Below are positions 6,224 to 24,808 of a DNA stretch of 64,000 bases, one piece after another. Below the pieces are notes generated by a model. The model made no database searches. It was not told where the DNA came from and saw only the letters and a list, made by a program, of their open reading frames with translations. Made by a program: the position numbers and the translations under genes. Each line of letters starts with the position of its first letter. Within the stretch, counting starts at the first letter, position 1. The DNA is taken from positions 2,336,001-2,400,000 of the forward strand of contig OY970061.1 in NCBI GenBank assembly GCA_963705255.1. Reading direction: 5' to 3'. Source of the stretch: an uncultured Methanoregulaceae archaeon (GTDB lineage: Archaea > Halobacteriota > Methanomicrobia > Methanomicrobiales > Methanospirillaceae).

Positions 6224-6948
6224 TGTCAGAACACCTGAAGCGACTGAATGCCCCGGACTCGTGGCACATCGCAAAGAAGACCACGAAATTCATTACCAAG
6301 ACCGCGCCGGGCCCTCACAACGCAAATGCGATGCCGATCGCCGTCTGGCTCCGTGACCACATGGACTATGCACGGAACATGAAGGAGATCAAGCAGATCC
6401 TCGGCCAGAACGATGTGATCATCAATGGCCGGCCCTGCCGCAATCCCAAGATGGGGATCGGCATCTTCGATATCATCGCCCTGCCGAAAATCAACAGGTA
6501 TTACCGCATCCTGCGCGACAGGAACGGCCGCCACGTCTCCATCGAGATTGATGCAGAGGCTGCCAAGACCCGGCTGTGCAAGGTCACGAACAAGACCGTT
6601 GTCACCGGTGGCAAAGTCCAGCTGAACCTGCGGGACGGCGCCAACCTGCTCGCAGACAATACTTACAAGGCCGGCGATTCGGTCGTGCTCTCCCTGGAAC
6701 CCGGGAACCGGTTCACGATCCTCGATCACTTCCCGTTCGCTGTCGGCAACATGGCCATGGTCATCGGTGGCCGCCACTCCGGCAACGTCGCACGGATCGT
6801 TGAGATCGTCAAGATGCCCGGGAGCGTCCCCAACAAGATCGTTCTCGAGGACGAGAAGACGGGCACCCGGTTCGACACGATCGCTCCCTACATTTACATG
6901 GTAGGAAAGCAGACACCTGCGATTGCAAAATGGGGGCATGAAGAGTGA
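6223..6948 (+). CDS. rps4e: 30S ribosomal protein S4e
   Basis: [21 protein letters not shown]. Confidence 0.97.
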
Positions 6949-7451
6949 CCTCGATGCGCGATGTCTACATCGACAAGATCGTCGTCCACATGGGAGTAGG
7001 CGAGAGCGGTGAGAAGCTGGTGAAAGCGGAAAACATTATGAAGACAATCACGAAGCAGACACCGATCCGGAGCATTGCCAAGAAGACGCAGCCTGCCTTT
7101 TCCATCAGGAAAGGTGCCCCGATCGGCTGCAAGGTAACCCTCCGCGGCAAGCCTGCCCGTGACTTCTTCGAGACCTCCTTAAAGATCGTCGACAAGACGC
7201 TCTTTGAGAGCCAGCTTGACACGAGCGGGAATTTCTCGTTCGGTATCGAGGAGCACACGGACTTCCCCGGTATGTCCTATGATCCGCAGATCGGTATCTA
7301 TGGCATGGATGTGAACGTGGTGCTCGAACGCAGAGGTATACGGATCACCCGCAGGCGCATGGAGCAGAAGAAACTCCCGGCAAAGCAGCGCGTCAGCAAA
7401 CAGGATGCGATCGCGTTCCTCAAGGACACCTATCAGGTAGAGGTGCGCTAA
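6945..7451 (+). CDS. rpl5: 50S ribosomal protein L5
   Basis: [18 protein letters not shown]. Confidence 0.97.
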
Positions 7452-17923: not shown

Positions 17924-17979
17924 CTGCTGTTCCCGAAGGGAAGAGCAGGCTGGAGAAGAACTCGTCAGAGTTCTTCGAC
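17924..17979 (+). repeat. Two hairpins of the dispersed GA/GNA-loop palindrome family
   Basis: CTGCTGTTCCC-GAA-GGGAAGAGCAG and GGAGAAGAACTC-GTCA-GAGTTCTTCGAC, the latter near reverse complement of 21883-21910. Confidence 0.75.
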
Positions 17980-18299
17980 TTGGGAGAGAGGGGGTCACAC
18001 TCATAACTATTTAAGAATATAAGCGAATCACACGATAAAACCGGGTTTCTACAGAGCCCATTTTTTTAATACTCGCACAATCATGCTCTGAATATGAACA
18101 ATCCCTGCACTTCCCCGTTGTATCCGTCTCCTTTTCCGGAGTGATATTCGGCAATTCCCGAGTGAACCCGGCTTCGTGTTCGAATGTGTCGGACTATGGA
18201 TGTATCGAAGTCAACACCGCCCCTGTCCAAACCCGAACCTTTTATTGGGTGGACTGGTTTACAGTAAAGGTACAGGATTGGCTGTCAGGAAGACTGACG

Positions 18300-20873: not shown

Positions 20874-21692
20874 TTATGCTCCCGCCCTGCGTTCATGCGT
20901 CCAGTTCCCTGCACCTGTGAACCCTGGGTGCGATGAGGTCTGGTTGCCGGAGCCCGCATGGTGCGGCTGGAACGAGCTTCCCTTCTGCCACCGGGTGCTG
21001 TTGCCGCCGTGCCAGCTCGTCCCGTTCGCGTTGGGATGTGCCGTATGGTACGCGGCCATCCACTGCATCACTCCATTCACGTTGCCGGAGGCGAGATCAG
21101 CCTGTACCCCGCTCACATCAACCCCTTGCTGTGCAATCTTCGTGACTCCGCTCTGGAGCCGCATCGCCAGCTGCGTGCTGTTTGCCATTATGCCCGGATG
21201 ATCCTTGTGCAGGGCCATCAGCTCCTGCATCGCGCCGGTGATGTTACCGGCGGCAAGGTCGGCCGTGGCCTGGGATACATCCACTCCCTTCTGGCTGAGG
21301 TTTGTGAGAACGGTCTGGAGACGGGCTGCCTGTGCTGTGGCATTCACCGCGTATTGCCGTGGGCTGTTTATTGCAATATCCGGGTGATCGTTATGATAGG
21401 CCATGAGCCACTGGGCAGCCGCCGTTACATTGCCCGCCGCAAGGTCAGCCTGGGCCGTGCTAGTGTCCACGCCCTGCTGGGTGAGGTTGGCAAGGACCGT
21501 CTGGAGCCGTGCCGCCTGCCGGGTGCTGTTGAATGTATGATGATAGGCGGTATTGCCCGCTGGAGTCCCTGCAGGGTCTCCTGAGGGAGAGAAGGCAGTC
21601 GCCGCGCTGACCGGGCTCATAATAAGTCCGATCACCGACACTACAATTGCAATGATGGCGACTACCCGGTAACTGGGTGTAGGTAGTTTCAT
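20874..21692 (-). CDS. Secreted protein with three helical repeats
   Basis: Signal peptide ending PVSA; three copies of RLQ...QQGVD.S..QADLAAGN......MA.H..HP. Confidence 0.8.
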   Translation of the reverse strand: MKLPTPSYRVVAIIAIVVSVIGLIMSPVSAATAFSPSGDPAGTPAGNTAYHHTFNSTRQAARLQTVLANLTQQGVDTSTAQADLAAGNVTAAAQWLMAYHNDHPDIAINSPRQYAVNATAQAARLQTVLTNLSQKGVDVSQATADLAAGNITGAMQELMALHKDHPGIMANSTQLAMRLQSGVTKIAQQGVDVSGVQADLASGNVNGVMQWMAAYHTAHPNANGTSWHGGNSTRWQKGSSFQPHHAGSGNQTSSHPGFTGAGNWTHERRAGA

Positions 21693-21878
21693 TCGTGTAT
21701 CATCTCTCTGGAAGAATTCCTGATGCGGGCTGAGTGGTGTGTACCCGCATCTTGTAAAGTATATGTTACATTTTGTAATATAAACTTTATGTTGTGTTGA
21801 ATATCACACCCATACCGGATCCTGAAGAAGGGTTTGAAGGCAGGTATGCGGATTGTGGGTCGAAACTACCCGATAGTC

Positions 21879-22064
21879 GGAATTCGCAGAACTCTGACGA
21901 GTTCTTCTCGTCCTCGAATTTCACTTCGCTCAATTCTTCGCAACTCGAAGAAATTTGAGAATTTCTTCTCTAGCTCGAATCGCACTACGTGCGATTCTTC
22001 GGAATTCGAAGAAACCTGATGGTTTCTTCTCGAATGAATCTTCTCGCTACGCTCGAAAATTCAT
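21879..22064 (-). repeat. Periodic array of six bulged hairpins (~30.5 bp period)
   Basis: Hairpins begin at about 21883, 21913, 21944, 21974, 22005 and 22035, most sharing TCGAA...TTC arms. Confidence 0.85.
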
Positions 22065-22075
22065 TTAAAAAAATT

Positions 22076-23113
22076 TTAAATGAGTTTGAAGATTGGATGG
22101 TTATCTGCCTTGACATCGATACCGAGCGGGCGCACTGCCTCAAGGACAGCGATGTCTGTATAGGCCTGTGCAGTGATCATTGCTTCTACGTTCTCAATGG
22201 GACCGTACATAATGAGGTCTGCACCAAGCGTGCTTGCGATCATGTTGCAACCGATATCGGGTGCAGACCATGCAGCCTGCTTGATACCTTCTATGCCACC
22301 AAGGTAGTGGTGGGACATCTGCTGGAGGAGGGCGTCTTTGCCCGCATATCCTGCTGCCAGTAAGGAGGGGGTTTTGCTCGTCCCCTTCCAGCGGCGGAGC
22401 CATGTCCAGGCAACGGTCATGTTGTGGTACGCTCCACCGGTCGGGTAGCCGTGGATAGCCTTACAGGCAAGGATCTCACGGTATGCACTTCCTGAACCGA
22501 GACCGAGCGGGGTCGCTGCAGTGTCGAGGATCGGGCGTTTGATACCGCACTCTTCTGCAATCTGGAGCATTCCCTTGGCCTGCCCTGCCACGCCACCCTC
22601 TACGAGCACTTTCTCCCTGCCTGCGACCGACGGGTCTGCAGGGTTGAATGCGAGGACGATGGCTGCGTCCACATCACTGTTCTTTAGTGCCTCAATGCTC
22701 TCCGGTGTGATCGAACCGTTGATTGAGTTGTAGATCGCACGGTGTGCAAGCCCGACATCAGTCACATATTTGCATGCATGGGCAAGTGCCTTCGGTACCG
22801 ATGAGTCCATCAGGAACGCGGTCTTGTTGTCGATGCTGTCAAACCAGCTGATGTATTTCTCGAACGCCTCTGGATATTCTGCGAGGATCTGGATGAAATG
22901 CGGAATTCCTACGGTATCAGAGAGTACCTGACAGCGGTTCCACAGTGCTTCTGCCTTTGCCTTGTCAATCTGTCCTGTCTTGTCATCAAGCACGACCTCA
23001 TGCTTGTTGTAGAATATTGAGGCCGCTAATACGGTCGGGTACTCACCGGGCTGTCCACCGATCTTGGTGCCGTTGAAGTCCCAGACACTCTGTTCTTTCT
23101 CGAATTTGAACAT
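22076..23113 (-). CDS. mtrH: Tetrahydromethanopterin S-methyltransferase subunit H
   Basis: MFKFEKEQ, IGGQPGEYPTVL, YNSIN, YGPIEN. Confidence 0.97.
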   Translation of the reverse strand: MFKFEKEQSVWDFNGTKIGGQPGEYPTVLAASIFYNKHEVVLDDKTGQIDKAKAEALWNRCQVLSDTVGIPHFIQILAEYPEAFEKYISWFDSIDNKTAFLMDSSVPKALAHACKYVTDVGLAHRAIYNSINGSITPESIEALKNSDVDAAIVLAFNPADPSVAGREKVLVEGGVAGQAKGMLQIAEECGIKRPILDTAATPLGLGSGSAYREILACKAIHGYPTGGAYHNMTVAWTWLRRWKGTSKTPSLLAAGYAGKDALLQQMSHHYLGGIEGIKQAAWSAPDIGCNMIASTLGADLIMYGPIENVEAMITAQAYTDIAVLEAVRPLGIDVKADNHPIFKLI

Positions 23114-23130
23114 GTTATTTTACACCTCCA

Positions 23131-23865
23131 TTACACCATTGTCATCAATTTCTGGTACAAAAACAGCAGCATCACAAATACGATAACGCCTGCCATGAGG
23201 CCGTACAGTATGCCGATATCCCGACCAATCTTTCGTCCAACACGCTGTGCAACCTCTGCATCCACGAACTCGATCTTCTTCTCGATCTTGTCGAGTTTCT
23301 TCTCGAGTTCGAGGAACTGCGGGTTTGCAGCTGCAGAGGCAGCTTCAGCGCCACCTGCTTCCTTGACTTCAACGACGATGGGGTCAGCAGCGAACGCGCC
23401 CGGGTCACGGGCCTTGAGTTCGTTGATCTTCGCCTTGATGGCGCCCAGGTCTTCGCTTTCCATGATATTGACGACTTCCGTCTGTTCCTGGAAACGCTTG
23501 ATATGGACGTCCGTGAGGTTTTCGATGAAGGGAATAGCACCTTCAGCGCCGACGACCCTGCCTTCCTTGACACCGTTCTTGTGGAGTGCCCCGAAGGTCT
23601 GGCCAGAGAGGTGGCCCTTGACTTCCGTACCGCAGAACAGGACGAACCTGATGTTGGGGTTGGAGATAACGTTGGCGATGACTTTCTCGAGGCCGAGGTT
23701 TTCCGTCTTACAGGAACCGCAGAGAGCGGCGCCTGCATCGCAGAGGCCCTTTTCGTCGAGGTGAGATCCCATGGTGACAACAGCCACGGGGCTGTTGGCG
23801 TCACCGGAGATAAAGTCACCCTTGATGAGCGGCCATCCGCTTGCTGGTGATTTCTTGTCTGCCAT
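23131..23865 (-). CDS. mtrA: MtrA-MtrG fusion protein
   Basis: MtrA core ([15 protein letters not shown]) fused to MtrG-type [11 protein letters not shown]...[16 protein letters not shown]. Confidence 0.93.
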
Positions 23866-23875
23866 TTCTTTCACC

Positions 23876-24085: not shown

Positions 24086-24808
24086 TCACCTCAACATCAG
24101 GAATCCGACCAGGGCAAACGAGATGATCAGACCGATCATCAGGCCTTCGATCTTACCTGCATAGACCCCGGCGGCAAACTTGTCCCGGTATCCGATATCC
24201 GTGACCATCTTTTCGATGACTTTGATGCGGGCAGTGATGAGTGCCATCTCGCCTGAGAGCGGACGGACTTCGCCGCCTGCTTCTTCAGCGCCACCTCCGG
24301 CTTCCTTGACCTCGACGACGACGGGATCGCCGGCGAACGCACCCGGGTCGCGGGCCTTGAGTTCGTTCATCTTCGCCTTGATGACGCCCAGGTCTTCGCT
24401 TTCCATGATATTGACGACTTCCGTCTGTTCCTGGAAACGCTTGATATGGGCTTCAGTGAGGTTTTCGATGAAGGGAATAGCACCTTCAGCGCCGACGACC
24501 CTGCCTTCCTTGACACCGTTCTTGTGGAGTGCCCCGAAGGTCTGGCCAGAGAGGTGGCCCTTGACTTCCGTACCGCAGAACAGAACGAACCGGATGTTGG
24601 GGTTGGAGATAACGTTGGCGATGACTTTCTCGAGGCCGAGGTTTTCCGTCTTACAGGAACCGCAGAGAGCGGCGCCTGCATCGCAGAGGCCCTTTTCGTC
24701 GAGGTGAGATCCCATGGTGACAACAGCCACGGGGCTGTTGGCGTCACCGGAGATAAAGTCACCCTTGATGAGCGGCCATCCGCTTGCTGGTGATTTCTTG
24801 TCTGCCAT
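24086..24808 (-). CDS. mtrA: Mtr subunit A
   Basis: Cobamide-binding core, [20 protein letters not shown]. Confidence 0.97.

Follow-up and report, generated by a model that had tools for sequence, protein, structure and literature searches.

REP sequences and the BIME mosaics that they form in enterobacteria and Pseudomonas are short palindromic units that occupy extragenic sites in tens to more than 100 copies, and they are found more commonly at the 3' ends of genes. The units are assembled into mosaics that alternate two unit types, their stems covary, and their copy number is uneven between related genomes. In REP-RAYT systems the unit bears a GTAG (or CGTC) tag at its end and the genome encodes a RAYT gene that is usually flanked by REPs and whose product, a Y1 HUH transposase (PF01797), moves them. 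REPINs are inverted doublets of such units, and in BIMEs the two unit types are joined by set linkers. CGTC-tagged REPs are palindromes with 8-9-bp stems and 4-5-nt loops that 'apparently lack a dedicated transposase' (Di Nocera et al. 2013, PMC3733652); the available text of that study places the tag at one end of the unit, describes mostly head-to-head dimers, and names bacterial phyla only (PMC3733652). Two further classes are MITEs, which are non-coding, multi-copy and intergenic, vary in presence between relatives, and are associated with TIRs, target duplication and a parent IS, and the ends of IS200/IS605 elements, which carry subterminal hairpins beside tnpA/tnpB. A search of full-text literature, drawn from the main text of articles outside subscription journals, turned up no account of repeats like these, whether in Methanoregula or in any other methanogen.

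The array considered here lies behind mtrH in a 64,000-nucleotide stretch of DNA (the window), and the family to which it belongs is the archaeal counterpart of REP/BIME. It shares with those repeats the short palindromic units (26-33 nt here), the extragenic location in tens to more than 100 copies with 3' gene ends the commoner, the grouping of units into mosaics with covarying stems, and the uneven copy number between related genomes, but the host is an archaeon. Dispersal, intergenic placement, covariation, a signature confined to one strand, patchy copy number, turnover of units and absence of HUH enzymes are all observed for this family.

The family lacks three defining features of REP-RAYT systems: a GTAG tag, a RAYT gene and doublets in inverted orientation. 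There is no end tag, and neither GTAG nor CTAC occurs at either end of a consensus of 22 units, whose flanks are instead GA...GA; the copy-rich genomes are without a Y1 transposase; and in contrast to REPINs the units run head-to-tail, with a single orientation at 32 of 41 multi-hairpin loci. Conservation falls on the loop, which is C-RTCA-G or C-GNA-G, and on the flanking GA/GA. Alternation of the BIME kind is seen in part: two unit types, here designated A and B, form a double period of 61 bp, but all units point one way and other loci use other modules. The CGTC REPs resemble this family as palindromic stem-loops for which the available text of the study names no dedicated transposase, but they differ in their terminal tag and dimers, since CGTC occurs here only across the stem-loop junction of GTCA-loop variants and the arrays are head-to-tail (PMC3733652). 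We consider it probable that the array is a cluster of a lineage-specific, non-coding, dispersed hairpin family that is REP/BIME-like, selfish or near-neutral, and recognised as a folded single strand.

The hairpin array behind mtrH

The feature (21879-22064) lies in the gap of 383 bp that separates mtrH from the following ORF (20874-21692), which is encoded on the same strand. The mtrH gene (22076-23113, minus strand; Pfam MtrH, E 8.7e-99) is the last of the mtr operon, and two bases past its stop codon there is a T7 run (22067-22073, minus strand). Archaeal transcription terminates at oligo-T, and we take this run to be the likely terminator of the mtr operon, with the array beyond it and beginning 10 nt past the run. 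When both strands are read, the gap contains six hairpins of two alternating types with centres 30-31 bp apart, as an earlier note on this DNA had described; on the mtrH sense strand the order is stop codon, two bases, T7, and then B3, A3, B2, A2, B1 and A1.

All six units are given here on the minus strand. B3 (22033-22065), the unit nearest to mtrH, has an 11-nt outer stem with arms at 22033-22043 and 22055-22065 around the core GA-GC-GTA-GC-GA. A3 (22006-22031) is of the main family type and reads GA-GAAGAAACC-ATCA-GGTTTCTTC-GA; the covariance model R1 introduced below scores it at 43.8 bits (E 8.3e-8). B2 (21975-22000) has a perfect 9-bp stem and a GTA triloop, and A2 (21945-21970; R1 36.4 bits) has the inner triplet ATT/AAT with a minus-strand loop CTCA. 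B1 (21914-21939), a module that is also present at further loci of the same genome, consists of a GAATT/AATTC stem around GA-GC-GAA-GT-GA, and A1 (21884-21909; R1 42.5 bits) has the inner triplet CTC/GAG, the loop GTCA and one A.G mismatch in its outer stem. The GA flanks of the minus strand and its three GTA or GAA triloops set within GA-GC...GC-GA, both claimed earlier, are thus seen in the sequence. Beyond A1 follows the distal flank (21842-21883, minus strand), which has been retained both by the nearest strain and by a genome at 88% mtrH identity, although the units between the flanks differ.

Independent programs recover the same organization. Tandem Repeats Finder reports positions 21877-22033 with a period of 61, 2.6 copies and a score of 174, and an inverted-repeat search of the array returns three stems of 9 bp without mismatch (A3, B2 and A2) and, at 91%, the 11-nt stem of B3. 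The 193-nt array stretch folds far better than 200 dinucleotide shuffles (z -5.2 to -5.9, with none of the 200 as good) on both strands and with both DNA and RNA parameters. A comparison of the two strands, which the earlier note had suggested, gives fold energies for minus and plus of -41.4 vs -38.9 kcal/mol (DNA) and -69.3 vs -61.4 kcal/mol (RNA), so that the minus strand is somewhat the more stable in both.

Such strong predicted folds on both strands might be thought to mark an independent small-RNA gene or a processed multi-hairpin RNA. We judge this very improbable, because every Rfam family stays far below its threshold (the top match in a scan of the array scored 20.3 bits, where the gathering score is 80) and because the number and order of units vary between close strains. 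A C/D-box or hammerhead core, suggested by the loop CUGAUGA, was also dropped, as this sequence forms the loop of a perfectly paired hairpin and had no Rfam match. In three metatranscriptome runs, coverage was restricted to the coding part of mtrH, came from relatives at 85-90% likeness and stopped short of the array, and in a DNA run contigs break inside the array.

Two neighbouring features of the window were noted. An AT-rich near-palindrome at 21744-21790, where the promoter of the ORF that follows the array is presumed to lie, has arms at 21755-21770 and 21774-21789 that are 88% complementary; it recurs at genome position 1140574-1140620 (91%) and, with 83-92% identity, in six further genomes that include one from a different genus, and at least five other contigs of DNA run X1 match this piece only. 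It may be a conserved promoter/operator motif or another small repeat. On the other side, the 247-aa ORF next to mtrH contains both MtrA and MtrG domains and has a paralogue of at least 70% identity just upstream, the two tandem MtrA-like genes being at 23131-23874 and 24086-24808.

A dispersed hairpin family with a one-strand signature

The source genome is a single contig of 2.6 Mb, in which BLAST places the array sequence at 50 sites. Hairpins that combine a TGAY loop with a stem of at least 7 number 222 in this genome. TGAT loops (91) and ATCA loops (63) stand out against 6-32 each for ten control loops of the same kind. More than 100 hairpins share the pattern TC-GAAGAA-NNN-TGAY-NNN-TTCTTC-TC, which reads GA-GAAGAA-NNN-RTCA-NNN-TTCTTC-GA on the other strand. 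The main (A-type) hairpin was represented by R1, a covariance model built from 22 units that were picked for having stems, so that their 97% pairing is circular. A model and genome scan of this kind had been proposed in the earlier note as a check on whether further copies exist, and R1 yields 136 matches at E <= 1 on this genome; as copies within one genome are related, such counts and the p-values based on them overstate independence. One further main-type copy lies in the window itself at 17949-17982 (minus strand with a TGAC loop; genome 2353949-2353982; R1 44.9 bits), within a different mosaic element. The REP/BIME-type reading of the earlier note thus holds to the extent that the array is one locus of a dispersed, intergenic and mosaic hairpin family.

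To measure covariation without stem selection, sites were anchored on the outer arms and TGA only (GAAGAA-N3-TGAN-N3-TTCTTC). The inner triplets were fully complementary at 49 of the 57 anchored sites and paired at two of three positions at the other 8, with eight different inner triplets represented and a chance expectation of about one complementary site. The inner stems vary yet stay paired, as had been claimed from the array alone.

The hairpins are modules of larger mosaics that occur in many orders and combinations. Among the elements combined with them are a GAGGTYC...GAACCTC hairpin at a distance of 28 nt, the B type seen in the array and many triloop hairpins, and the commonest module spacings genome-wide are 28 and 30-31 nt; a regular-expression scan for the B-type core proved too loose for copy counts. 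Of 132 family-like hairpins, at least 124 are not wholly contained in a confident gene, although such genes make up 67% of the genome; the gene calls are crude and rest on codon-usage scores of ORFs. Spurious ORFs of 80-150 aa arise from the absence of stop codons on one strand of the repeat. The array is also not a CRISPR array, as the earlier note had stated, for both unit types recur at other loci and the repeat of the genome's own CRISPR array (504943-506874, about 30 repeats) is unrelated to the hairpin family; mimicry of that CRISPR repeat was rejected on the same ground.

Several unusual sites were noted. A tandem repeat of 59 nt in 9 copies (genome 360009-360481) has units that start like the left arm of the A type (TCGAAGAACGC). 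At 307175, 181953, 729723, 1600982 and 399294 the upstream ORF terminates at the TGA of the hairpin loop and the left arm is translated. Family units may have inserted into the final codons of genes or taken their place. The same mosaic element is present in inverted orientation at 2568165 and 2572498, where it brackets 4.3 kb encoding an aldo-keto reductase, a TetR regulator and an ABC ATPase; this pair could be a composite structure or an inversion.

A strand-specific fold signature, which the earlier note had described for the array, extends to the family as a whole. We collected 125 hairpins with paired RAAGAN-N3 arms and any loop, of which 120 could be oriented by GA...GA versus TC...TC flanks. 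On the GA-flank strand the loop had the form R..A in 80 of these; in 1 it did so on the opposite strand and in 39 on neither, and about 21 of the 39 are C-RNA-G, in which an extra C-G pair closes an R-N-A triloop. Common loops on the GA strand are ATCA, GTCA, GAA, GCAA and GCCA, and G.T wobbles within stems number 17 on this strand vs 7 on the other. One strand carries the unit pattern GA - stem - C-R(N)1-2A-G loop - stem' - GA, with the loop and the stem base conserved and the inner stem varying while pairing is kept. Sheared G.A pairs closing GNA/GNNA loops, and tandem G.A pairs, stabilise hairpins, and the d(GCGAAGC) type is an exceptionally stable DNA mini-hairpin. With DNA nearest-neighbour parameters the GA-flank strand is the more stable in 119 of 120 units (mean 0.53 kcal/mol) and with RNA parameters it is favoured in 63 vs 39, in a comparison in which the copies are related and the flanks that set orientation themselves enter the energy.

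These properties bear on the reading of the repeats as duplex sites for a dimeric regulator or for chromatin proteins placed in 30-bp steps, in which the palindromes would not form hairpins. The period of 30-31 bp is indeed near three helical turns, and TTCTTC/GAAGAA recurs at each unit. Complementarity of a variable inner stem is nonetheless demanded by intrastrand pairing and not by a duplex site, and the loop and flank signature is one-stranded; in addition, the commonest spacing elsewhere is 28 nt and not 30-31, and more than 100 sites lie beside unrelated genes. We therefore assign duplex binding only a slight chance.

The relationship of the units to genes and replication was also examined. 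In tandem gene contexts the TGAY strand coincides with the gene strand in 42 cases and is opposite to it in 41, which shows no preference. Arrays within 80 nt of a confident gene end are at 3' ends in 23 cases and at 5' ends in 11, with orientation balanced at both (12 vs 11 at 3' ends and 6 vs 5 at 5' ends). GC skew is flat, and the direction in which units point along the chromosome follows no replichore pattern (permutation p 0.81). This absence of bias, relative to neighbouring genes as well as along the chromosome, makes it unlikely that the units act generally as RNA elements, in cis and in one orientation, within host transcripts. A T-run adjoins 5 of 105 arrays against a background of 5.5%, which excludes T-run targeting as a general rule. 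A hairpin that terminates or stabilises transcripts at gene ends should keep a fixed orientation and position relative to its gene, and neither this nor the simple terminator considered in the earlier note is found: orientation at 3' ends is balanced, T-runs are at background, and the T-run behind mtrH precedes the array.

Distribution and turnover in Methanoregula-type genomes

The hairpin family is confined to Methanoregula-type genomes. Over 30 relatives at E <= 1e-3, R1 finds 108 matches in the source genome, 22 in one congener, 1-2 in four congeners and none in twelve, and it has no matches in 12 genomes of 8 other genera. At E <= 1e-5 over the genus, 29 of 108 genomes have between 1 and 59 matches each (59, 51, 44, 27, 26, 20, 18, 16, 14, 13, 11, 10, 10 and lower), and the 79 genomes with no match at this threshold include several that are 96-99% complete. 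An exact 26-nt motif occurs in at least 108 stretches of a species-level genome collection, and among the matches listed 79 of 80 are labelled Methanoregula, Methanoregulaceae or Methanomicrobiales. The exact motif was absent from the viral contigs searched (0 matches), and a viral origin was rejected on this basis. Genomes with 85-87% identical mtrH have no copies and others at 83-85% have 26-44, so that copy-rich genomes are not simply the nearest kin, as far as can be judged from mtrH identity, which reflects a single gene and no phylogeny.

Presence or absence at the 3' end of mtrH in relatives, another comparison suggested in the earlier note, gave a varied picture. R1 matches occur at 26 of 99 mtrH loci from relatives and metagenomes, all of them downstream of mtrH, and 45 of the 46 matches have the same orientation as in the source genome; a stricter detector finds 22 hairpins in this orientation vs 0 in the other. 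The order in relatives is often the mtrH stop, a T8-T11 run, then either a B-type unit or a small GC hairpin whose loop has three bases, and finally an A-type unit. All five copy-rich genomes examined have arrays behind mtrH, as do 7 of 8 further loci. In most relatives the neighbour, as identified from Pfam and a reading of the sequence, is a convergent TPR-repeat gene with its own T-run, which places the array between two terminators. When array presence is mapped as a trait on the mtrH tree it requires 11 changes, 9 of them forced by well-supported branches, a count that is too high to the extent that the stricter detector misses degenerate units.

The mtrH site is an old residence at which units of 30 nt and double units of 61-62 nt have been gained, lost and swapped between close strains while the flanks stayed fixed. 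A 62-nt block next to the T-run comprising B3 and A3 is absent from strains with 99% and 98% MtrH identity, and no target-site duplication was seen at this 62-nt indel. The last hairpin has been swapped whole, with the inner triplet CTC and the loop GTCA here versus ACC and ATCA in the 99% strain. At a locus with 91% MtrH identity (L082), a B3-like unit followed by an A unit occupies the same proximal place, and the genome with 88% identical mtrH keeps the T-run, distal flank and downstream ORF around a different series of six or seven units. That this site is a long-lived residence would be explained by its position beyond the mtr T-run and, in most relatives, between convergent genes, where extra DNA should do little harm.

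The persistence of arrays at one site also invites a different explanation, namely that they are a functional RNA element of the mtr operon whose hairpins, carried as the well-folding strand in read-through transcripts, would protect against 3'-to-5' decay or contribute to stopping or insulating transcription where two genes converge. Several observations agree with it: the array is directly behind mtrH in many lineages, its orientation there is constant, the signature strand is the mtrH sense strand, and arrays across the genome are twice as frequent at 3' as at 5' gene ends. Moreover, the copy behind mtrH is the sole R1 match of the genome in G006 and G014 and the best of four in G082; in G001, G016 and G038 it is not the best. 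A constant orientation together with the best or only copy in 3 of 6 testable low-copy genomes is as compatible with selection for a local function as with descent. Against this explanation, the array lies past a T7-T11 run that, by the termination rule given above, should end most mtr transcripts, and orientation genome-wide is neutral both in tandem contexts and at 3' ends. Most Methanoregula mtrH loci are without a recognisable array, at least 9-11 changes fall on the mtrH tree, and unit content differs even between strains at 98-99%. On balance an RNA function for the mtr operon appears unlikely to us, though it is the best placed of the alternatives to the REP/BIME-like family.

A separate observation concerns assembly. 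In relatives, contigs end at mtrH or no more than about 600 nt downstream of it in 8 places (7 same-genus genomes and 1 of another genus; the contig-end loci are L026, L028, L029, L030, L032, L038 and L039), as expected if the repeats disrupt short-read assembly.

Mobilising enzymes and the spread of the units

The earlier note had proposed a test for association of the hairpins with HUH/RAYT, IS200-like or GIY-YIG genes, and such an association was not supported. The Y1_Tnp domain (PF01797; RAYT/HUH) has no match in this genome and none in the 13 genus genomes with at least 10 hairpin copies; it is present in 5 of 108 genus genomes, each of which has 0-2 copies. The absence of PF01797 here and in all copy-rich genomes refutes a RAYT-type mechanism for this hairpin family. 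GIY-YIG matches are not near arrays, and the better one, at 6855-7079, may be UvrC-like, a guess from its position. A DUF559 nuclease was not found in this genome.

Other candidates were no more closely linked to the arrays. The TnpB Zn-ribbon domain has three matches in the genome, two of which are short TnpB-like ORFs (250-259 aa) that lie 2.7 kb and about 20 kb from an array, neither of them bracketed by arrays; the third, a sub-threshold match at 1819816, lies in a TFIIB gene. The ORF at 20874-21692 was also dismissed as a transposase, having only a sub-threshold TNP-like match (E 8e-4) and none at 1e-4. Two DDE fragments are present, and an all-protein comparison of the genome found no protein family with more than 3 copies. 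No REPtron-like gene lies between arrays in the 5 array-flanked regions inspected, whose genes are ordinary (aldo-keto reductase, TetR, ABC ATPase, FrhB-like, KilA-N, PIN and HicB). Three more regions inspected alongside these contained the TnpB-domain matches and no genes flanked by arrays.

These results also separate the family from the other described elements. It shares with MITEs its non-coding, multi-copy and intergenic character and its presence or absence between relatives, but it has no IS-matching terminal inverted repeats and no duplication at the one indel examined, and the genome has almost no multi-copy transposase genes. IS200/IS605 ends lie beside tnpA/tnpB, whereas here there is no TnpA and the TnpB-like ORFs are not bracketed by arrays, and the array does not fit an IS end of this kind, an identity that the earlier note had considered.

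Under the REP/BIME-like reading that we favour, the units would spread as a folded single strand, most likely ssDNA, and a structure-specific enzyme acting in trans, other than a Y1/HUH transposase, would recognise the folded units. New units would land preferentially beside existing ones and so give rise to head-to-tail arrays, and unequal recombination or gene conversion between the 61-62-bp double units could account for the remainder. No clean pair of empty and filled sites was found beyond the mtrH locus, and transposition itself is something that we infer. We advance as a tentative possibility that the family represents a new archaeal mobile hairpin, in which folded ssDNA is copied by a non-HUH/RAYT enzyme that recognises the C-R(N)NA-G loop together with the tandem G.A base, and is inserted beside existing units; the mtrH site could then be its oldest residence and perhaps the source copy in the genus.

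For work on these organisms, the repeats break metagenome assemblies just behind mtrH, and the arrays at this one fixed site behind the mtr operon offer a natural series for tracking the gain, loss and exchange of units across the genus. The clean one-strand signature (80 vs 1) makes the folded strand open to experiment. REP repeats and their RAYT partners are a bacterial story in the searchable literature, and the same life style is seen here in an archaeon; since the hairpin family has multiplied while an HUH transposase is found in no copy-rich genome, it points to another way of multiplying hairpin DNA.
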